Shown here piece by piece: positions 25,367 through 34,319 of a stretch of DNA of 54,240 nt. The position numbers and the translations under genes were made by a program. The notes beneath the pieces are model-generated. The model did no database searches, had not been told where the DNA came from, and was given only the letters and a program-made list of their open reading frames with translations. Location of the stretch: the NCBI GenBank assembly GCA_964435925.1, contig CAYTBG010000004.1, positions 1,792 through 56,031 on the forward strand, written 5' to 3'. Position 1 is the stretch's first letter. Each line of letters begins with the position of its first letter. The DNA comes from an uncultured Eubacteriales bacterium. GTDB taxonomy: Bacteria > Acidobacteriota > Aminicenantia > Aminicenantales > Aminicenantaceae.

Positions 25367-25444
25367 GCGCCTGTAGCTCAGTCAGGATAGAGCAGCTGCC
25401 TTCTAAGCAGCGGGTCGGAGGTTCGAGTCCTTCCAGGCGCGCCA
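25367..25444 (+). tRNA. tRNA-Arg(TCT)
   Basis: GCGCCTG/CAGGCGC acceptor, GCTGC-CTTCTAA-GCAGC arm, GTTCGAGTC, GCCA end. Confidence 0.95.
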
Positions 25445-25454
25445 CCCTTTCCCC

Positions 25455-25546
25455 TTTTTTTTCAATAGTTTTCCTCAGAGTGCAGTTTAGCCATATTTAG
25501 TTATTTTGGGTAATTTTGAGCCCAAAGTGGCAAATGAGTGGCTAAT
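25455..25546 (+). repeat. att-like flank copy A
   Basis: Follows tRNA-Arg; aligns by eye with 26647-26738 (TTTTTCAATAG...CTCAG...GTTATTTT...GCAAATGAGTGG). Confidence 0.65.
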
Positions 25547-25625
25547 CTCTACCCCATATTAATGGGATTTGAGTGGCAAATCAGAGTTGAATATTCAGAT
25601 GTTGAAACTTGATTTATGATCGTCG

Positions 25626-25691
25626 GACGCACTGGACTCAAAATCCATCGGAACATTTCGTTCCATGTGGATTCGAATCCCTCCTCCGGCA
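25626..25691 (+). pseudogene. tRNA-Leu(CAA) 3' remnant
   Basis: GACGCACTGGA-CTCAAAA-TCCA anticodon arm, GGAAC/GTTCC variable arm, TTCGAATCC, CTCCGGCA; 5' acceptor strand absent. Confidence 0.7.
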
Positions 25692-25823
25692 TACAATTTC
25701 CCTTGATAATTCCTAGGCCTTCCATTATCTTTATTTTCAGCATATTCCATTGAACTAATAATCATTTTTAGATAAGATAAGTAAAAACCGGGAAAATAAC
25801 AAAGTAATAGTTTCCAGAACAAA

Positions 25824-26483
25824 ATGAATACTAGAAAGAAAAAAAATATACTGCATATAATTCTTTCCATATTCGCGATGCTCATAGGGTTTGCCTTATT
25901 TGCTTTTATTATTTGGGGAGCGTACAGAGTTACTTCATATTTATTTCAAATATTTTCAACTCTTGAACCAGATATTGCAATTGCAATAATTGCAGGCTCG
26001 ACTACCATAATCGCATCTACTCTAGCTATTGTTTTAGGGAGGTATTTTGAAGCAAAAAAAGAAAGAGAAGTTGCCCATCGTGATAAAAAGGTTATACTCT
26101 ACGATGAGTTCTTAAAAAAACTATTTGACCTCTTCTTAGGCCATGAAGAAGATAGACCAAGACAAGAAGAGTTCGTTCCTTTTCTCAGGGATATACAGAG
26201 AAAAATCATACTGTGGTCTGGTCCTAAAGTTATAAAATCATATTCAAAGTGGCATAAGGAGCTAACATCACAACCTCAACGACCAAAAGCCAAGTCAATG
26301 ATAAAAATGATAGACTTTTTCTTAGCCTTAAGAAATGACCTTGGGCATAGCAATAAAGGAATCAAACGTGAATATCTAGTGAGATTTATGCTAAAAAAAC
26401 CTGACCTTTTTATGCGAATGTTTAGAGAAAAGCCAGAAGTTACGTTAGACGAAATTGCCGAGGCTGAGGAAAAACTGAATTAA
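25824..26483 (+). CDS. Hypothetical membrane protein (2 N-terminal TM)
   Basis: 219 aa AT-rich ORF; two hydrophobic segments then a helical soluble part. Confidence 0.75.
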   Translation: MNTRKKKNILHIILSIFAMLIGFALFAFIIWGAYRVTSYLFQIFSTLEPDIAIAIIAGSTTIIASTLAIVLGRYFEAKKEREVAHRDKKVILYDEFLKKLFDLFLGHEEDRPRQEEFVPFLRDIQRKIILWSGPKVIKSYSKWHKELTSQPQRPKAKSMIKMIDFFLALRNDLGHSNKGIKREYLVRFMLKKPDLFMRMFREKPEVTLDEIAEAEEKLN

Positions 26484-26586
26484 TTTAGCCGAATCACTTA
26501 AATTGAGTCATCTTAGGTCAATTTGTCCATACTGTGTCCACACAGATTTTAAGCAAGGTCTATTTCTGCATAAGTATATAGACTAT

Positions 26587-26635
26587 CTGATTGTTAAGCA
26601 GAAGGTCGAGGTTTCAAATCCCATCGTCCGCTCCA
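26587..26635 (+). pseudogene. Degenerate tRNA 3' half (Thr-like)
   Basis: CTGATTGTTAAGCAGAAGGTCGAGGTTTCAAATCCCATCGTCCGCTCCA resembles anticodon arm, T-arm and GCTCCA end. Confidence 0.5.
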
Positions 26636-26646
26636 GATAACCTCTT

Positions 26647-26738
26647 TATTTTTCAATAGATTTGCTCAGGGTATAGTTCTAGCTATAGTTTGTTATTTTA
26701 GGTTATTTTTGCCACAAAATAGCAAATGAGTGGAAAAT
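26647..26738 (+). repeat. att-like flank copy B
   Basis: Follows the tRNA remnant; roughly 70% identical to copy A by eye. Confidence 0.65.
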
Positions 26739-26854
26739 CTGTGTTTAGCTTTTAGAAAGTAATGTCTTTATCGATAAAGATTATAGGTAAATAGAATCTT
26801 TAAGATGAAGTTTAGCTAAGATTTTTGTATAATATTCTCAAAACATACTTGTTG

Positions 26855-28084
26855 ATGATGGACAAGAAAATATTAATAATAGGGGCAAGAGATTTTCCCA
26901 AAGTTGATTGTTTTCGCTGGGACGAGGAAAACCTTCCCAATATTGCTGATTATGACATAGTAATTTTGAATGTGGTTTCATTATTAAATTACAAAGCCAG
27001 AGCCAGCACTCAACCAAAAGTTAAAAATGGTTTAGAAATATTATTAAATTCTGGGGGATGTTTAATAGCAATTGGTTGTCCACTAAAAGATGTGGAGGTT
27101 CGGACTTTTCCGTTTGGGGATAAGGATATTGGTTCTCAAAGCAATTATGCGTGGTGCCCTTTTCAAATAGGGATAAAAAATGAATCTGGAGATACTGTTG
27201 AGTTTCAGGATGACACTTTTAAAGAATATTTTAAATATGTAAAGAAGTGGACATATTTTTTTGATTTGCGAGACAGCAATCTTTCAATAGATAACTCGGT
27301 GAATAATAGATATGGAAAGCTGCTTGCTGGAACAATCGTAAGGATTACTTCCAAAGGGAGAACTGGAGAGCTAGTTTTTTTACCTTGCCCAACTGAAATT
27401 TCAGACATTGAAGCAGTAAATTTTATTCTTGAAAAATTCTTCAGAGTTTATCAAAAAACTCCTCCACCTGATTGGACAAAATTAGTTGAAGTACCAGGTT
27501 TAAAAACTGTTCAAAAAAACATAGAAACAAATCTCCAAAAGATTAAACAATTATCTAAAAAAAATGAAAAATTTAGGGAAACAGAATCTGAATTAATTAG
27601 CTATAGAGAATTGCTTTATGAAACGGGGACTGCACTTGAATGGGTTGTGAGAAAGGTTTTTACAAAACTTGGATTTAAACCAAAACCACCTGTTTATAAA
27701 GAAGAATATATAATTGAGTACGATAAAAAAGTAGGGATTATTGAATGTAAGGGAAACGAAAAAAGCATAAAAAGAGATGATTTTCGACAGTTGTTTGAAC
27801 AAACAAAGGAATATGAGTTAGTTGGCAAAGTTGAACATAAAGGTATCTTAATTGGGAATGCTTGGAGATTAAAGCCGCTTGAAGAAAGAGACAAGAGCGG
27901 TACTCCTATATTCCCAAAAGGCAAAGATGGAGTCACTGATATTGCCGCAAGACATGATATAGCTCTTGTATAAACAACAGATTTATTCAAAACATTTTGC
28001 AAATTTTTAGAAGGGAGAATAGAAGCTAACGGTATTATGAAAAAAATTTTTAGTGCAAAAGGGACAGTAAATTTTTACAAGTAA
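26855..28084 (+). pseudogene. Hypothetical protein with C-terminal PD-(D/E)xK-like segment, in-frame TAA at 27971
   Basis: GIIECKG motif. After DIALV* the same frame continues TTDLFKTFCKFLEGRIEANGIMKKIFSAKGTVNFYK* to 28084. Confidence 0.6.
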
Positions 28085-28137
28085 TTTTATCTGAATATTA
28101 CTTGAAAATTCAAATAGCTATTATAAAGAAAAAGTGA

Positions 28138-28626
28138 ATGCAAATTACTAATATGGAAAGTTTGAATTTAGCTCTTGAAACGGTAAAAAATAAGCACGAA
28201 TCAACTATTGCAAATATACGTAGTCTTGATATTAAATCTTCTATTATTTTAGCTCTCTTTGGAGTGTTGCTAATACCGTCACTAGAAATTCTTCAATGGA
28301 CAGTTAGAATAAATTCTCAATATTTCTTGAAGTTGATTCCTATTTGTATAACATCAGCAGGGATTATTTTTTGTTTATTAACTATAGTGCCCCATAAGTA
28401 TAAAACAACTCCAAGTTTGTCTTCTTTAAAGAATGCCTTAGAAAATAATATGGATGTGAATTTAATTAAAGCTCAATTATACTCAAATATATCTAGAGCA
28501 ATTATTTTCAATAGAAAGATAGCAAAGAGGAAAGCAATTTTTAATGTTGTTTCTTCTTGGCTATCATTAATTGTCTTTTTATTAATAATTACATTATTTT
28601 TGCTGAAAGGAGTCATTGATGGTTGA
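28138..28626 (+). CDS. Membrane protein, Pycsar-effector/DUF5706-like pattern
   Basis: IRSLDIKSSIILALFG, three hydrophobic segments, NRKIAKRK before the last TM; family call tentative. Confidence 0.55.
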   Translation: MQITNMESLNLALETVKNKHESTIANIRSLDIKSSIILALFGVLLIPSLEILQWTVRINSQYFLKLIPICITSAGIIFCLLTIVPHKYKTTPSLSSLKNALENNMDVNLIKAQLYSNISRAIIFNRKIAKRKAIFNVVSSWLSLIVFLLIITLFLLKGVIDG

Positions 28627-28771
28627 AGAAAATGAAACAAAACCTAAGGATGAGCAAGAATCAGAGCCTGAGAAACCTATCATAATTCCAGAACCAAATG
28701 ATGATTGGGATGACTTTCTAACGGAAGAAGCTCCACCACCAAAGGAGAAGAAAAAGAAGAAAAGAAGTTAA
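28619..28771 (+). CDS. Small acidic/Pro-rich protein with Lys tail (50 aa)
   Basis: MVEENETKPKDEQESEPEKPIIIPEPNDDWDDFLTEEAPPPKEKKKKKRS*; overlaps the upstream stop by 8 nt; GGAG upstream. Confidence 0.6.
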   Translation: MVEENETKPKDEQESEPEKPIIIPEPNDDWDDFLTEEAPPPKEKKKKKRS

Positions 28772-28859
28772 TTCAGTAGGAAGCTAAAGAACTCAGCGCT
28801 GGAGTTACTCACAAAAAAGATTGAAGGGTGTACTTCATAGCTTTTAAATAAATTAAAAT

Positions 28860-29300
28860 TTGATGACGGTGGGGATTGAAATGGAGATTATCGGGAAAAA
28901 AATTATTAAGAACGCTTTACAAGAAATTAAATTAGATATTCAGAAAGCTAGAGAAAATGCAAAAATTCCATTTGTTAAGGCAGGAATAGACGGTACAAAT
29001 TTTAGTGAGGGAAAAATACAAGGAATAAAAGAAGCAGAAAACATAATAAAAAGAGGTCTGGATAAGATAGAAACTCAAACATGCCATCTTTTTTTTAGCA
29101 GAGCTGATTTTAAACCAGAAGGAATAGAACATCTTTGGAGAAACCTTGCTATTGAAGAGGATAAGAAGAACTACTTTGAAAAAATATGTCTAAATATTGT
29201 TGGGGTGAAAGTTTATCTTAAATTTCCTGAGAAGGAAGAAATGTTAGTCTGCATCACTTCAGAAGATGGAAGTTTGAAAGTTATTGGGATTGTTGATTAA
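28860..29300 (+). CDS. Hypothetical protein
   Basis: 146 aa ORF, no recognised motif. Confidence 0.6.
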   Translation: MMTVGIEMEIIGKKIIKNALQEIKLDIQKARENAKIPFVKAGIDGTNFSEGKIQGIKEAENIIKRGLDKIETQTCHLFFSRADFKPEGIEHLWRNLAIEEDKKNYFEKICLNIVGVKVYLKFPEKEEMLVCITSEDGSLKVIGIVD

Positions 29301-29382
29301 GAATAGATCATGTTTATCTTATAAATTTTGGATTAAATAAGACAGATACGAAAAAAATAGAAAATAATATTGTGAGCCAAGC

Positions 29383-29440
29383 GGAAGCCAAAAACCTTAG
29401 AACCTTGGCATTCCTAGATTGACAAAAGACGCTGAGCGAG
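29383..29440 (+). repeat. Intergenic repeat R1 (58 bp)
   Basis: GGAAGCCAAAAACCTTAGAACCTTGGCATTCCTAGATTGACAAAAGACGCTGAGCGAG; 49/58 identical to R2. Confidence 0.9.
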
Positions 29441-29502
29441 ATCAGGTCCTCATAGCTAAAGAGGAGTAAGGAAAAAAGTGAATTTTTAAGTAAAGGGTAA
29501 AA

Positions 29503-29685
29503 ATGAATTTTGAAGAGAAGCTGAAGTCTCAGAGAATAATAATTGCTATTGCTTTGATATTGATGTCCTTGATTTCATTTAATTTCGCGATACAAAGTAC
29601 TCTCACAATTATTTCTTTTATTATAGGTCTTGCTTTTTTAGGGATGGCGTTTTTTCTCTTGTTTGGATTAAAGAAGAAACGTTGA
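29503..29685 (+). CDS. Small 2-TM hypothetical protein (60 aa)
   Basis: Two hydrophobic helices, basic termini; lies between R1 and R2. Confidence 0.7.
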   Translation: MNFEEKLKSQRIIIAIALILMSLISFNFAIQSTLTIISFIIGLAFLGMAFFLLFGLKKKR

Positions 29686-29692
29686 GGCGATT

Positions 29693-29757
29693 GGAAGCCA
29701 AAAACCCTAAAGCCTTGGCTTCCCTGGATTGAAAAAGGACGCTGAACGAGTTAGAAT
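29693..29757 (+). repeat. Intergenic repeat R2 (hairpin + sigma-70 promoter)
   Basis: GGAAGCCAA...TTGGCTTCC 9 bp stem; TTGAAA(29729)-N17-TAGAAT(29752). Confidence 0.9.
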
Positions 29758-29776
29758 TCTTATAAGTGGGGGCGAA

Positions 29777-30901
29777 ATGAAAAGCAAAACTAAGGTCATT
29801 TCAATCGTTTTGTTTCTTTCACTCTTCATAATGCTTACTTCCTGTCAGAAACAAAATTCTGAATGGAAAGGGACAATAGAGGAAGAAGATGGAGTCATAG
29901 TCGTTAAGAATCCGAAAGAGCCGATGTATAGTGAAGATGTCTGTAGTATAAAAGAGGAACTATCCATTGGGGAAGCAGATGGGAGAGAAGAATATATGTT
30001 TTCTCAAATAATTGATGTGGGAATTGATGATGAGGAGAATATATATATTCTTGATTTTTTAGAAGCCCATATTAAGGTATTTAACAAAAGCGGTGAACAC
30101 TTAAGAACTATAGGAAGAAGAGGTCAGGGTCCTGGGGAAATACAACGAGCAGTAAACATATATATCACGCCTTCGAATGAAATCCTTATCAATGACCGAG
30201 GTGCTCGATATTTTCATTTCTTTACATTAGGCGAGGAATATATAAGGTCAGTATATCAAAGCAGATTATCTCGTCCACGGGTTGATACACAAAATAACAT
30301 AGTTGCGAGGTCTACTATTATGGATAGGGCTGAAGTCCGTTTTGTTTTAAAAAAATTTGATTCTGAACTAAATGAGCTATATACAATTTTTTCTTACAGA
30401 AGTGAAATCACTCCTAAAATTTATAATGTTTATCCTGCACAGTGTTTTTGGGATGTTAGACGTGATGATAGCATAGTTTGGGGATATGCTGATAAATATG
30501 AGTTTCATATCCTTGACAGGAGCGGACAAGTTATTCGAAAGATAATCAAAGATTATGAACCTGTAGAAATAACAGAAGAAGAAAAACAGAATTGGGTTAA
30601 GAATATTTTTGGAGATAACGGTGTTCCTCCAGACGTAAAGGTGAACTGGGATAAATATCATAATGCATTCCAGTTTTTGAACATTGATGATGTAGGGAGA
30701 ATTTTCGTTCATACATATGAAAAGACAACTGAGGGAGGGAGTTATTATTATGATGTCTTTAATTCGGAAGGAAAATACATAACAAAAGTTCCCCTTAAAA
30801 CCAGACCTCAGGTTTTCAAAAAGAGCAGGCTTTACACCATAGAAGAAGACGAGGAAGGATTTCAATTTGTTAAAAAATATAAAATAACTTGGAAATATTA
30901 A
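29777..30901 (+). CDS. 6-bladed beta-propeller-type lipoprotein
   Basis: Lipobox LTSC, GRRGQGPGEI, IYILDFLEAHIKVF, YYDVFNSEGKYI; start reassigned to ATG 29777. Confidence 0.8.
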   Translation: MKSKTKVISIVLFLSLFIMLTSCQKQNSEWKGTIEEEDGVIVVKNPKEPMYSEDVCSIKEELSIGEADGREEYMFSQIIDVGIDDEENIYILDFLEAHIKVFNKSGEHLRTIGRRGQGPGEIQRAVNIYITPSNEILINDRGARYFHFFTLGEEYIRSVYQSRLSRPRVDTQNNIVARSTIMDRAEVRFVLKKFDSELNELYTIFSYRSEITPKIYNVYPAQCFWDVRRDDSIVWGYADKYEFHILDRSGQVIRKIIKDYEPVEITEEEKQNWVKNIFGDNGVPPDVKVNWDKYHNAFQFLNIDDVGRIFVHTYEKTTEGGSYYYDVFNSEGKYITKVPLKTRPQVFKKSRLYTIEEDEEGFQFVKKYKITWKY

Positions 30902-30907
30902 CGGATT

Positions 30908-30960
30908 AGAAGCCAAATCCCCTAAAGCCCTAGCATCCCGATTCTGAAAAAGCCAGCTCT
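30908..30960 (+). repeat. Intergenic repeat R3 (diverged)
   Basis: AGAAGCCAAATCCCCTAAAGCCCTAGCATCCCGATTCTGAAAAAGCC, directly after the propeller stop. Confidence 0.75.
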
Positions 30961-31045
30961 TGAATTTTATGTTTAACCAATGAAGCCTAGCCTCATATCT
31001 CAATAATCAATCCTCCCAGCTTCCCCTATCCCCAGGCGTAAGATT

Positions 31046-31126
31046 GCGTCGCATTACTATTATTATGTCGACCCGTAAGCTCTAGGTTATTGATTATCAA
31101 GAAATCAGAAAAATAAAGACATTTAA
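31046..31126 (+). other. dif-like (11-6-11) site plus conserved AT-rich flank, copy D1
   Basis: GCGTCGCATTA-CTATTA-TTATGTCGACC versus E. coli dif GGTGCGCATAA-TGTATA-TTATGTTAAAT. Confidence 0.55.
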
Positions 31127-31363
31127 AAACAAGGAAATTAGCATAGTGAGGTCAAGATTTGATATTTATTGAAGTAGCAAAAGTTTGAATGTTCATGAAA
31201 AATGAACAATGCGAATTATTGAACATTATACTTTCTAAGGATATTTAATTCTTAAAGATTATGGCAAATATTCAAAAAATATTGACATTTGTACATTATT
31301 TTGTTATGTTCACAAATATTGTACAACTAACATAATTGTACATACAGAGGAGTGTGATTATCA

Positions 31364-32404
31364 ATGAACATGAAAATTATAGAGAAGGAGATTTTGAATG
31401 GAGCGCTACAAAAGTTTCGTGAAAATACAAGACTTGCTGTTGAGATAGTTGAGATTGAGGGGAAGGCAGTTAATGCAGGCCACATTCATGACGCAATAAT
31501 CAAAATTAAATGGAAAGATTTGGATTACTTTTTTGCGGTTGAAGTTAAAAACATTATCGCGCGGGCGACACTTGGAGGAGCTATACAGAAGTTTCATTTA
31601 TTTAAGGAAAAAGGGATGCTCGTTGCAAGGTATATTACTCCTCAAATGGCAGACGAGCTAAAAAAAATGGACATTCCTTTCATCGATGTCACTGGAAATG
31701 CATATATAAATGAACCACCTTTGCTGATATTTATAAAAGGGAATAAGCCTACTGATAAATATCACTTAGAACAGCCAGCGCGCACTTTTCGACCGGCAGG
31801 ACTACAAGTTATTTTTGCACTTTTGTGTAATCCAGGACTGGAAACTGCTCCTTTAAGAGAAATAGCTAATAAAGCAACTGTTGCCTTAGGAACAGTCGGC
31901 TGGGTAATGTATGATCTAAGGAGAACGAATTATCTGATAGAGCTACATCCACGAAATCGACGATTGATTCGCAAAGAAAATTTGTTGAATAGATGGGCTG
32001 CTGCATATCCTGAGCAATTGCGACGGAAAAAGACGTTAGGTCGCTTTCGTGCAGATAAGCAGGATTGGCAGAAATATGCCCAACTAAAAGATATTAAAGG
32101 TCTGTGGGGTGGCGAATTTGCTGCAAATATATTGACAAAATATCTGAAGCCACAAATTTATACGATTTATGCAAAACTCCCTATTGGTAGGTTTCTGCTG
32201 AGAAACAAGCTTAAGAAGGACATCAATGGAGATATAGAAATTCTCAATATATTTTGGGAGTTTGGACCTAAACGGCTAAATAAGGGATTAGTGCCTCCCC
32301 TCTTGATTTACGCGGACCTTCTTGCAACGGGTGATGCCCGAAATATTGAAACTGCGAGGATTATTTATGAAAGGGAGCTTACTGGACATATCGGGGAAGA
32401 TTGA
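31364..32404 (+). CDS. Type IV TA antitoxin, AbiEi-like
   Basis: IPFIDVTGNAYI, LREIANKATVALGTV HTH, VPPLLIYADLL..GDARNIETA. Confidence 0.85.
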   Translation: MNMKIIEKEILNGALQKFRENTRLAVEIVEIEGKAVNAGHIHDAIIKIKWKDLDYFFAVEVKNIIARATLGGAIQKFHLFKEKGMLVARYITPQMADELKKMDIPFIDVTGNAYINEPPLLIFIKGNKPTDKYHLEQPARTFRPAGLQVIFALLCNPGLETAPLREIANKATVALGTVGWVMYDLRRTNYLIELHPRNRRLIRKENLLNRWAAAYPEQLRRKKTLGRFRADKQDWQKYAQLKDIKGLWGGEFAANILTKYLKPQIYTIYAKLPIGRFLLRNKLKKDINGDIEILNIFWEFGPKRLNKGLVPPLLIYADLLATGDARNIETARIIYERELTGHIGED

Positions 32405-33230
32405 TAGAGTAAGACTGCTAGCTTTGGAGAAAGTTACCAAGATAGCAGAATCTCTAGGCATCCCAATCTTTATGATAGGTGCTGCAGCTAGGGATTTGAT
32501 ACTCACGAATGGCCATAACATACCTACTATCAGAGCTACCCTTGATATTGATTTTGGCGTCCAAGTTCCGAGTTGGGATGAATATTTGAAACTTAAACAA
32601 GGCTTAGTTAAGACGGGTGAATTTACTGAAGCTGATGATGTCCAAAGGTTGATGTTTCAAAACAGTCTAAGAATAGATTTAATTCCATTCGGACCGATTG
32701 CAGATAAAACTCATACTATTAAATGGCCGCCCGATCAGGAGATAATGATGAGTATTCTTGGCTTCGAGGAAGCGTTCCGTCATTCACAAACTATTAGACT
32801 AAGTTCAAATCCTAACCTTGATATAAAAATAGTAACACTAGCTGGATTAGCGGCTATGAAAATAATCTCTTGGAAAGATAGATACCCAGAACGCGATAGA
32901 GATGCAATCGATCTAGCATTAATTATTCGAAATTATACAGAGGCAGGAAATTTTGAGCGCATTTTTAATGAAGCATCAGACTTAGCAGACTCTGAAGATT
33001 TTGATTCTGTAACTGTTGGAGCGAGATTATTGGGTCGAGATATTGCTGTGGTTCTTTCAACTGATGCCATGGCCGTAGTTTTGGAAATATTGAATAATGA
33101 AACAGGAAAACAAGATCGTTATAGACTTATAGAAGATATGATGCGGAGTGATGTATTGATTAGCGATGATTTTGAAGATGTGCTCAGGTGGCTTGAGGAA
33201 GTGAAAACAGGAATCTTAGAGGGGATTTAA
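32367..33230 (+). CDS. Type IV TA toxin, AbiEii-like nucleotidyltransferase
   Basis: MIGAAARD, RATLDIDFG, IDLIPFG, MKIISW.DR..RDRDAIDL; start reassigned to ATG 32367. Confidence 0.85.
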   Translation: MKGSLLDISGKIDRVRLLALEKVTKIAESLGIPIFMIGAAARDLILTNGHNIPTIRATLDIDFGVQVPSWDEYLKLKQGLVKTGEFTEADDVQRLMFQNSLRIDLIPFGPIADKTHTIKWPPDQEIMMSILGFEEAFRHSQTIRLSSNPNLDIKIVTLAGLAAMKIISWKDRYPERDRDAIDLALIIRNYTEAGNFERIFNEASDLADSEDFDSVTVGARLLGRDIAVVLSTDAMAVVLEILNNETGKQDRYRLIEDMMRSDVLISDDFEDVLRWLEEVKTGILEGI

Positions 33231-33313
33231 GTGGAACTAATGAATAATGAATCTTTTGAGATGATGGAATTTTTAATGCAAAATGCGCATATCTAACGTA
33301 ATTCATAAAATCT

Positions 33314-33389
33314 GCGTCGCCTAACTTCATGTAAACTCATAAACTCTGTGCTGTAGATATCAGTAAATAAGAAGAATAACGACATTTAA
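33314..33389 (+). other. Degenerate dif-like site plus flank, copy D2
   Basis: GCGTCGCCTAA-CT-TCATGTAAACT (spacer shortened); the next ~52 nt match the D1 flank at about 40/53. Confidence 0.5.
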
Positions 33390-33567
33390 GAGCCCATCCC
33401 ATAGATAATTATATGAAAGCGGGGGGCTGTCTTGATACTTCCGCAATTTTTCCGTGGAAAAAGGATTCTCTGCTTCTTGGGCTTTATTTTACTGACGGGC
33501 CACCCCATAAACAACTTGACATTTTTTTATCTGGATGATATACATGTATTACGTTTAGGAGGAAAAA

Positions 33568-33786
33568 ATGCTTGCCATAAGGCTTCCAGACGAGATTGAA
33601 AAACGTCTTGAGAAATTAGCAAAAAAAACCGGGCGAACAAAAAGTTATTATGTTCGTCAGGCAATCCTTGAATATCTGGAAGACATGGAGGATTATTATC
33701 TTGCTGAGGAGCGGTTGAAATCCTTTAATGAGGCTAAAACTATTCCTCTTGAAGAAATAATGAAGCGATATGGCCTGGAAGATTGA
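33568..33786 (+). CDS. Type II antitoxin, RHH (RelB/CopG-like)
   Basis: MLAIRLPDEIEKRLEKLAKKTGRTKSYYVRQAI, EDMEDYYLA; GGAGG RBS. Confidence 0.9.
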   Translation: MLAIRLPDEIEKRLEKLAKKTGRTKSYYVRQAILEYLEDMEDYYLAEERLKSFNEAKTIPLEEIMKRYGLED

Positions 33787-34039
33787 ATTTTTGCCTGAAG
33801 CAGAAAAAGATCTGAGGGAAATAGACCCTCCAGTTGTCCAACGTATTTTAAGGTTCTTGTATGAAAGAGTAAGACTTCTGGAAGATCCGCGAAAGATCGG
33901 AGAAGCTTTGAAAGGCCCTAAACTTGGAAAATATTGGAAGTACAGGGTTGGCGATTATCGGATAATCTGCCAGATAAGAGAGACAGAGATAACCATTCTT
34001 GTGGTGAGAGTAGGACAACGAAAAAATGTCTATCGTTGA
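33770..34039 (+). CDS. RelE/ParE family toxin
   Basis: WKIEFLPEAEKDL, WKYRVGDYRIIC, VVRVGQRKNVYR. Confidence 0.92.
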   Translation: MAWKIEFLPEAEKDLREIDPPVVQRILRFLYERVRLLEDPRKIGEALKGPKLGKYWKYRVGDYRIICQIRETEITILVVRVGQRKNVYR

Positions 34040-34061
34040 TTCACAGACCAGTCAAAAATTT

Positions 34062-34178
34062 TCCTATAGGGGAGAGGCTCGTAAAATACTCACTCATAAC
34101 GAAGCGCAGGTAGATGCAGAGACCGGAGAGGTTATCCAAAAAAAGAAGTCTTGGTGGGCATTCTTGGTATCAGAGTAA
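34062..34178 (+). pseudogene. Orphan C-terminal gene fragment (PepSY-like VDAETGEV...WWAFL)
   Basis: SYRGEARKILTHNEAQVDAETGEVIQKKKSWWAFLVSE*; no start codon. Confidence 0.5.
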
Positions 34179-34319
34179 CCACAATATTTAAAAAACAAGT
34201 GCAACCAGGCAGTTTTGGTCTATTTTGTCATGTTTTCGTCCCTGATACGTCCCCAGAATTAAAATGGATTCTCTTCATAAGTGCCAGTTCTTTTCAGTAT
34301 AAGGAGTCTTATTCTATTT

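Follow-up and report, generated by a model that had tools for sequence, protein, structure and literature searches.

The window analysed here is a stretch of 54,240 nt (54 kb) on contig C4 of a metagenome-assembled genome (MAG) of an uncultured Aminicenantes bacterium (G000; 2.84 Mb, 172 contigs, 41.7% GC), whose nearest named relative is the Candidatus Aminicenantes MAG SOIV01000051 (G001:C180). A cassette of 2.27 kb was found in this window between two directly repeated sites, D1 and D2, that resemble dif with its arms for the recombinases XerC and XerD. The only contents of the cassette are a promoter and the genes abiEi and abiEii, a predicted toxin-antitoxin (TA) operon. We consider it likely that the cassette, which lacks a recombinase of its own, was inserted by the host XerC and XerD at a secondary dif-like site and is now fixed there. 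The features of the locus are as follows.

30905-31045, + strand: conserved sequence to the left of D1, beside the XerC arm, made up of a hairpin 'punctuation' element and about 100 nt ending in ...CCCTATCCCCAGGCGTAAGATT
31046-31073, + strand: D1 (attL-like), intact 11-6-11 dif-like core GCGTCGCATTA-CTATTA-TTATGTCGACC (XerC arm 31046-31056, central region 31057-31062, XerD arm 31063-31073)
31074-31130, + strand: right-flank copy 1 on the XerD-arm side, containing the palindrome TTGATTATCAA
31282-31310, + strand: operon promoter, TTGACA-17-TATGTT with TG, sigma-70-type (promoter scan)
within 31282-31345, + strand: three TTGTACA repeats overlapping the promoter, read directly from the sequence
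31364-32404, + strand: abiEi, predicted antitoxin and regulator, 346 aa; PF09952 AbiEi_2, E 2.8e-38, residues 200-339
32367-33230, + strand: abiEii, predicted nucleotidyltransferase toxin, 287 aa; PF08843, 33 bits (cut-off 22.5)
33231-33313, + strand: right end of the module, ending in ...AATTCATAAAATCT
33314-33337, + strand: D2 (attR-like), dif-like core with a 2-nt spacer, GCGTCGCCTAA-CT-TCATGTAAACT (arm 33314-33324, spacer 33325-33326, arm 33327-33337)
33338-33392, + strand: right-flank copy 2, homologous to copy 1

The two cores lie 2268 nt apart in direct orientation, both on the + strand. A dif-type site consists of two 11-bp arms around a central region of 6-8 bp; D1 has this geometry whereas D2, with a spacer of 2 nt, does not. 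Each core is followed by about 55 nt of homologous flank (31074-31126 versus 33338-33389), and the alignment as a whole spans approximately 31037-31126 and 33305-33389, its gaps being the 4 nt missing from the D2 spacer and a single further nucleotide. When the two intergenic regions are aligned locally they score 50, as against 21.1 +/- 2.8 (maximum 38) in 1000 shuffles. One of 924 random segments of the window likewise scored 50, which is probably due to the hairpin repeat of the left region that is present also near 29373 and 29690. D1 and D2 are letter-identical in two independent assemblies from other samples (JGI 3300028837, 99.8% identity; SRR3085585, 99.95%; loci L106 and L107 for D2), which rules out an assembly error as the origin of the 2-nt spacer. 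An earlier note, made from the letters of the window alone, had described the 11-6-11 geometry of D1, the matching arms and collapsed spacer of D2, a shared downstream flank of about 52 nt and the absence of anything but the TA pair and its promoter between the repeats, and each of these readings was borne out, the last by the gene, domain and promoter scans. No third full copy of the repeat was found in the 2.84-Mb draft genome with blastn-short, and D1 and D2 are the only dif-like sites in the window, where a scan for degenerate sites that might form a right boundary for the neighbouring RelBE genes also found none. The module itself has no recombinase gene.

The native dif of the lineage was searched for with the pattern GYGTCGCATWA-N6-TTATGTCAACY, allowing up to three mismatches, and with the reversed pattern as a control. 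The pattern was matched in 36 of 41 close relatives and in 236 of 301 genomes of the class, nearly always by a single site, whereas the reversed control gave about ten matches in total. Three closed relatives were used to determine the distance of the site from dnaA:

G025: dnaA at 1,627,277, site at 3,947,811, genome of 4,072,281, separation 57%
G027: dnaA at 504,097, site at 2,827,007, genome of 4,309,361, separation 54%
G039: dnaA at 2,658,078, site at 1,060,368, genome of about 3.3 Mb, separation about 48%

In the source genome the site is found at G000:C24:4305-4332 as GTGTCGCATAA-CGGTTA-TTATGTCAACT (in full, GTGTCGCATAACGGTTATTATGTCAACT), and it is identical in G001. The predicted native dif of the lineage is thus GTGTCGCATAA-N6-TTATGT(C/A)AACT, an assignment supported by the occurrence as a single copy, by synteny and by the location opposite dnaA. 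One flank, with a second ParA/ParB-like pair, is conserved across the order, and the other flank is variable. GC skew within 100 kb on either side of the candidate was weak and noisy in two closed relatives, with no clear switch, so the site was located by dnaA distance, copy number and synteny. Gene orientation converges at the site in G025 and not clearly in G027. The native dif of G005, a congener of a sister species, was not located; the perfect-match site at G005:C103:20813 was rejected as the ParAB-linked dif.

D1 and D2 each match the native dif at 18 of 22 arm positions (2+2 mismatches each), and D1 departs from the search pattern by one mismatch. The earlier note had allowed for a native dif unlike these sites; the one that was found resembles both of them. 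Since it lies, with its ParAB neighbours, on contig C24 and not in the window, the cassette occupies a secondary site. Both host enzymes are encoded in the genome, XerD on C169 (TIGR02225, 375.7 bits; cut-off 329.6) and XerC on C36 (TIGR02224, 348.6 bits; cut-off 335.15).

Several observations concern the surroundings of the native dif and the recombinases of this genome. The second ParA/ParB-like pair occupies G000:C24:2805-4374, where the dif site overlaps the 3' tail of the ParB-like frame, and such a pair stands beside dif also at G025:C1:~3,946,985, G027:C1:~2,827,571 and G039:C1:~1,059,578. This pair is not to be confused with the ParB gene that lies about 50 kb from dnaA, and a terminus-linked ParAB pair is an unusual arrangement. 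The first gene on the variable side of dif (G000:C24:4463-5245, minus strand) encodes a possible HEPN-type defence protein of 261 aa that contains an R-x4-H motif. Besides the dif-like cassettes the genome has an IntI system, as shown by an integron integrase gene at G000:C18:6415-7476 (TIGR02249, 463.8 bits).

Copies of the module in other genomes and metagenomes show where its homology ends. A total of five independent breakpoints were found (four AbiE contexts and one other cassette), each of them within or abutting the 28-nt core. The copy in G001 is about 90% identical from approximately 31140 to 33326 and falls to background right after GCGTCGC(C/A)TA. Its attR is GCGTCGCATAT-CTATTA-CTACGGAATAT, with no homologous right flank. 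In L112 (87% aa identity) the identity runs through the entire D2 core and ends at 33338 after the XerD arm, where a different cassette follows, while in L118 (87% aa) it begins at the attL core, and the DNA to the left is unrelated save for a short motif beside the XerC arm. L109 (97% aa) has exactly the 28 nt of D1 in common with the window, then 2.15 kb of other DNA, and rejoins the window at 31199. The right end of the module (33231-33313) is about 88-90% identical in G001, L109 and L112, up to the core. An unrelated cassette of about 500 nt, found in G000:C14, G003:C127 and G005:C161, behaves likewise, as the pairwise identity rises from about 30% to about 90% inside the core and the three left flanks are all different. 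The same AbiE module thus occurs in different contexts with its boundaries at the sites (G001, L112, L118 and L109), a pattern that would not be expected from homologous exchange within flanking repeats of 100-150 nt. The earlier note had also considered that no other modules might be bounded by the motif; other modules bounded by it were in fact found, among them the arrays of G005 described below, and the homology of the window with other copies of the AbiE module extends no further than these cores. The junctions of G001, where the central region is GATGCA in attL and CTATTA in attR (the latter as in sites of this type that are unoccupied), fit an exchange at the point where the XerC arm meets the central region.

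Damaged sites are a recurrent property of the module. The equivalent of D2 in L109 is GCGTCGCCTAA-CT-TTATGTCAACT, with the same 2-nt spacer and with arms nearer to the consensus than those of the window; the loss of the spacer, being common to the window and to this 97%-related locus, therefore predates the split of the strains. L111 and L113 have a 3-nt spacer at attL, where CTATTATTATG has become CTATTATG with one TTA unit fewer, and no attR was found in either. L112 has a 3-nt spacer at attR, and in the attR of G001 the XerD arm is degenerate. Spacers of 2-3 nt were observed independently at four junctions. In each copy with both flanking sites readable one site is damaged, and the lesions differ among copies. 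Tyrosine recombinases require a central region of 6-8 bp between the points of cleavage, and the shortened-spacer sites should for this reason be inert, so that excision by D1 x D2 recombination would no longer be possible. The view taken in the earlier note that the module is locked in by the damaged D2 agrees with a 2-nt spacer that is stable over three assemblies and the 97%-related strain. The pattern of damaged sites would fit survivorship, in which cassettes with two good direct sites were excised and lost.

Most genomes of the class carry one dif-like site whereas the genomes of this genus carry several. The highest number among the 301 class genomes scanned, 28 sites, was found in G005, where the sites form direct arrays spaced 0.2-6 kb apart and separate small genes. 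Eight sites on one strand lie within 9 kb at G005:C96:14642-23710 and four on one strand within 7 kb at G005:C103:236-6960, with a spacing of 0.2-3 kb in these two arrays, and the genes between array sites encode lipoproteins, helix-turn-helix proteins and proteins of unknown function. There is hardly any variation in the XerD arm of the sites and more in the XerC arm, and the central regions are all different. Most cores sit in longer conserved sequence on both sides. On the XerC side the hairpin 'punctuation' element is followed by sequence ending in ...TTTCCCCGAGAAGACT or ...CCCTATCCCCAGGCGTAAGATT, and the native dif shares ...GAAGACT there. This left element precedes dif-like cores at G000:C14, G001:C180 (twice), G004:C14 and G005:C83, while its copy at G000:C8 is followed only by a degenerate, unrecognisable site. 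On the XerD side a few flank families recur, some of them promoter-like; the family of the D1 right flank is found also at G001:C180:1880 and at two G005:C83 sites, and the right flank of D2 is closest to the attL flank of G001 (79.5% over 88 nt).

The hairpin itself, GGAAGCCAAA-N-CCTAAAGCC-N-TTGGCTTCC followed by GATTGAAAAAG, occurs in the window at 29373-29440, 29690-29760 and 30905-30960. It is common to many loci of the genus and lies often, not always, 70-130 nt upstream of a dif-like core. In the 28-35 kb part of the window no Rfam match was obtained (E up to 1), and RNAalifold gave no conserved structure in the left flanking element, and a structured RNA or tRNA-like attachment gene was rejected on these grounds. 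A minus-strand mini-ORF (open reading frame) starting at the reverse complement of GCGTCGCAT was also rejected, as its copies differ by 1-nt and 9-nt indels.

The cargo of the cassette is a distant member of the AbiE family, as its domain matches predict, and a predicted toxin-antitoxin pair. As in known AbiE systems, a protein with an AbiEi_2 domain is followed by an overlapping gene for an AbiEii-family nucleotidyltransferase (the overlap is 38 nt), and the promoter carries repeats suited to autoregulation. The TTGTACA repeats are candidate operators for AbiEi, and the stretch with promoter and repeats is about 90% conserved in G001. The toxin gene, also called as 287 aa in L106, encodes a GAAARD...DID motif. 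The pair differs from known members in the weak match of AbiEii (PF08843 at 33 bits, above the cut-off; PADLOC AbiEii, E 8.7e-5), and neither AbiE protein had an NCBIfam match. In some close relatives the toxin gene is decaying inside the cassette: abiEii is deleted in L109 (3386-3507), and L111 (1714) and L113 (2908) have a 330-nt internal deletion in it, with abiEi kept in all three. Homologues of the module with 47% aa identity were found in three Desulfobacterales MAGs (L014, L018 and L019), where they are bounded by direct repeats of their own (90-125 nt, about 90% alike) that are unrelated to dif. In other phyla, too, the AbiE module seems to move as a cassette bounded by repeats.

The cassette lies at the right end of a variable island, which has the following features.

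25475-34231, no strand: variable, low-GC accessory island of 8.8 kb, from tRNA-Arg to a MacB-like gene, holding the cassette
33568-33786, + strand: RelB-like gene of a separate TA unit
33770-34039, + strand: RelE/ParE-like gene of the same separate TA unit

The island is flanked by mutL-tRNA-Pro-tRNA-Arg on one side and the MacB-like gene on the other, and its GC content is 29-40% as compared to 41-46% in the flanks. The congener G003 (C89) has only about 2 kb between the same mutL-tRNA and MacB flanks, and G005 has a different island of 13 kb, with dif-like sites, at the same position. The RelBE pair (NF048017, 111 bits; TIGR02385, 39 bits; PF05016) is absent from G003 and lies on the opposite side of the AbiE operon in L110 (Ga0209427_10024661), so that the order of the TA units there is reversed relative to the window; a full extra tRNA-Arg-like copy stands between the two units at 1040-1130 of that locus. 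In the window, tRNA-Arg (25367-25444) is followed by two tRNA 3'-end fragments (near 25625-25690 and 26590-26640), each of them followed by a copy of a repeat of about 90 nt (TTTCAATAG...GCAAATGAGTGG; 25460-25560 and 26650-26750). These fragments and repeats look like stacked att remnants of integrative elements. A further gene of the island (28138-28626), which adjoins no cyclase gene, encodes a membrane protein of 162 aa that matches PADLOC PycTM weakly (E 4.9e-6).

The proposed route of the cassette runs as follows. A circular form carrying one dif-like site would be recombined by the host XerC and XerD with a resident secondary dif-like site in the tRNA-Arg-linked island, and this insertion would yield the direct sites attL (D1) and attR (D2), one on each side. 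The subsequent loss of 4 nt from the central region of attR would have fixed the cassette. We infer the enzyme, the circular intermediate and the block to excision by spacer loss. Exchange by XerC and XerD is supported by the sites themselves, by their likeness to the native dif, by the presence of xerC and xerD and by the breakpoints at the cores. Together with the lack of a recombinase in the module, these findings favour the Xer-mobilised TA module of the earlier note, with the qualifications that the locus is a secondary site in a tRNA-Arg-linked island and not the native dif, and that L110 has the operon without any dif-like site.

Several findings weigh against this proposal. As the locus is away from the native dif, it cannot be taken for granted that the usual reaction, which FtsK activates at the septum, takes place there. 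At position 8 of its XerD arm D1 carries a G in place of the A found in nearly all other sites. In L110 (93% aa) the operon alone (31241-33270 of the window) follows the tRNA-Arg copy with no dif-like site, and copies of 68-70% identity (G020 and L114-L116) have no dif-like sites either; the operon must therefore move by other means too, and it is a promiscuous cargo for which Xer sites are one vehicle and not the sole one. No clean empty site was found: G003 lacks the whole island, and G005 shares the right-hand gene of G001 with non-homologous DNA between that gene and the site. No contig with a circular or single-site module was found among the 33 metagenome loci. Finally, attL is preceded by the same conserved element in the window as in G001, and the left side could accordingly be explained by homologous exchange.

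This last point leads to the most serious of the alternatives, one that we nevertheless regard as unlikely, in which the cassettes are exchanged by homologous recombination between the long conserved flanks (about 100-150 nt on the left and about 55 nt on the right), maybe after uptake of foreign DNA, and the cores are passengers. The left element is indeed common to the window, G001, G000:C14, G000:C8, G004 and G005, families of right flank recur beside different cargo, and several cassettes, namely that of L109 and the one on C14, coincide with a site at one end only. However, the breakpoints would then be expected throughout the repeats of 100-150 nt, and they were observed within or at the edge of the 28-nt core; L118 has the same core with a different left flank and the attR of G001 is without any homology to the right flank. 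The cores are also clear paralogues of the native dif, which homologous recombination alone leaves unexplained.

It is quite improbable that another recombinase was responsible, either the integron integrase of contig C18 or an integrase of the tRNA-Arg island. Such an enzyme has a source in the IntI-family gene (G000:C18:6415-7476), the island contains tRNA 3' fragments and att-like repeats, and the L110 operon adjoins a tRNA-Arg copy, but the boundaries have no attC-type GTTRRRY ends and the cores have the geometry and arms of dif. The island itself contains no integrase gene, and its tRNA-linked repeats lie away from the boundaries of the cassette. It is hardly credible that D1 and D2 arose by local duplication or resemble each other by chance and play no part in mobility. 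Only two copies exist in the genome and they are about 70-78% alike, but their alignment score is about ten standard deviations above that of the shuffles, and the idea is already contradicted by other genomes and metagenomes, in which the same cores bound the module in different surroundings.

A broader extension of insertion by the host XerC and XerD can be put forward only tentatively, with the odds somewhat against it. The genus may run an integron-like cassette system wholly on housekeeping XerC and XerD, with promoter-bearing cassettes of one or two genes in direct arrays. In such a system, extended dif-like sites with accessory flanks, of about 100-150 nt next to the XerC arm and about 55-210 nt next to the XerD arm, would permit recombination away from the terminus, and fixation would come about through a central region shortened by slippage.

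Integrative mobile elements exploiting Xer (IMEX) include VGJ-phi and CTX-phi of Vibrio cholerae and the gonococcal genetic island. Like TLC-phi of V. cholerae, a further example (PMC9226527), they are bounded by direct dif-like repeats of which one is often imperfect, they have no recombinase of their own, as found for the present cassette, and they are integrated by the host XerC and XerD. Stacking in arrays is another common property. However, IMEX integrate at the native dif whereas the present cassette lies at a secondary site, and they are phages or large islands, some with a Xer activation factor, whereas here an element of 2.27 kb carries only a TA operon and no XafT-like gene.

The dif modules of Acinetobacter are known as pdif or xrs modules on Rep_3 plasmids and as chromosomal 'dif module islands' (PMC12907356, PMC13141974, PMC6449649). 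They are also small, lack a recombinase, have 28-bp sites of the XerC/XerD type and stand in rows. TA genes are frequent cargo of the Acinetobacter modules (higBA, relBE and brnT). In both systems conservation is higher in the XerD arm than in the XerC arm, and the central regions are variable. The flanking sites of the Acinetobacter modules alternate, C/D then D/C (PMC12907356), whereas the sites are direct in the window and in the arrays of G005, so that this rule of orientation does not hold here. Further differences are the host, an uncultured member of the Aminicenantes, the chromosomal location and the long conserved flanks to either side of the cores.

Integron cassettes share with the present system the arrays of one orientation, the content of one or two genes, the frequent TA cargo and a presumed circular intermediate with a single site. 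They differ in that the sites here are duplex dif-like cores and not folded attC, the presumed enzyme is XerC/XerD and not IntI, and the cassettes carry promoters of their own. No attC R''/R' motif (GTTRRRY) was found at either boundary on either strand by direct reading; no attC covariance model was run. The plasmid Xer sites cer and psi likewise have, beside the XerC arm, about 100-150 nt of conserved sequence outside the core. This likeness is one of position only, and there is no sign here of accessory proteins of the ArgR/PepA type or of topological selectivity.

Gene shuffling at Xer sites without a recombinase has been well documented only for the dif modules of Acinetobacter and for IMEX of the phage type at dif, and how dif modules move is still unsettled. 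No Xer-bounded cassettes outside these two groups were found in the full-text literature, which was not searched for Aminicenantes or Acidobacteriota by name. The present cassette would extend the principle of dif modules and IMEX to an uncultured and distantly related lineage, in a new architecture of direct repeats, integron-like arrays and cores with long conserved flanks. In addition, the natural variants of the central region provide a comparative handle on what permits or blocks the movement of cassettes by Xer. These findings suggest that the housekeeping Xer systems are a more general platform for the exchange of accessory and defence genes than the published record shows.

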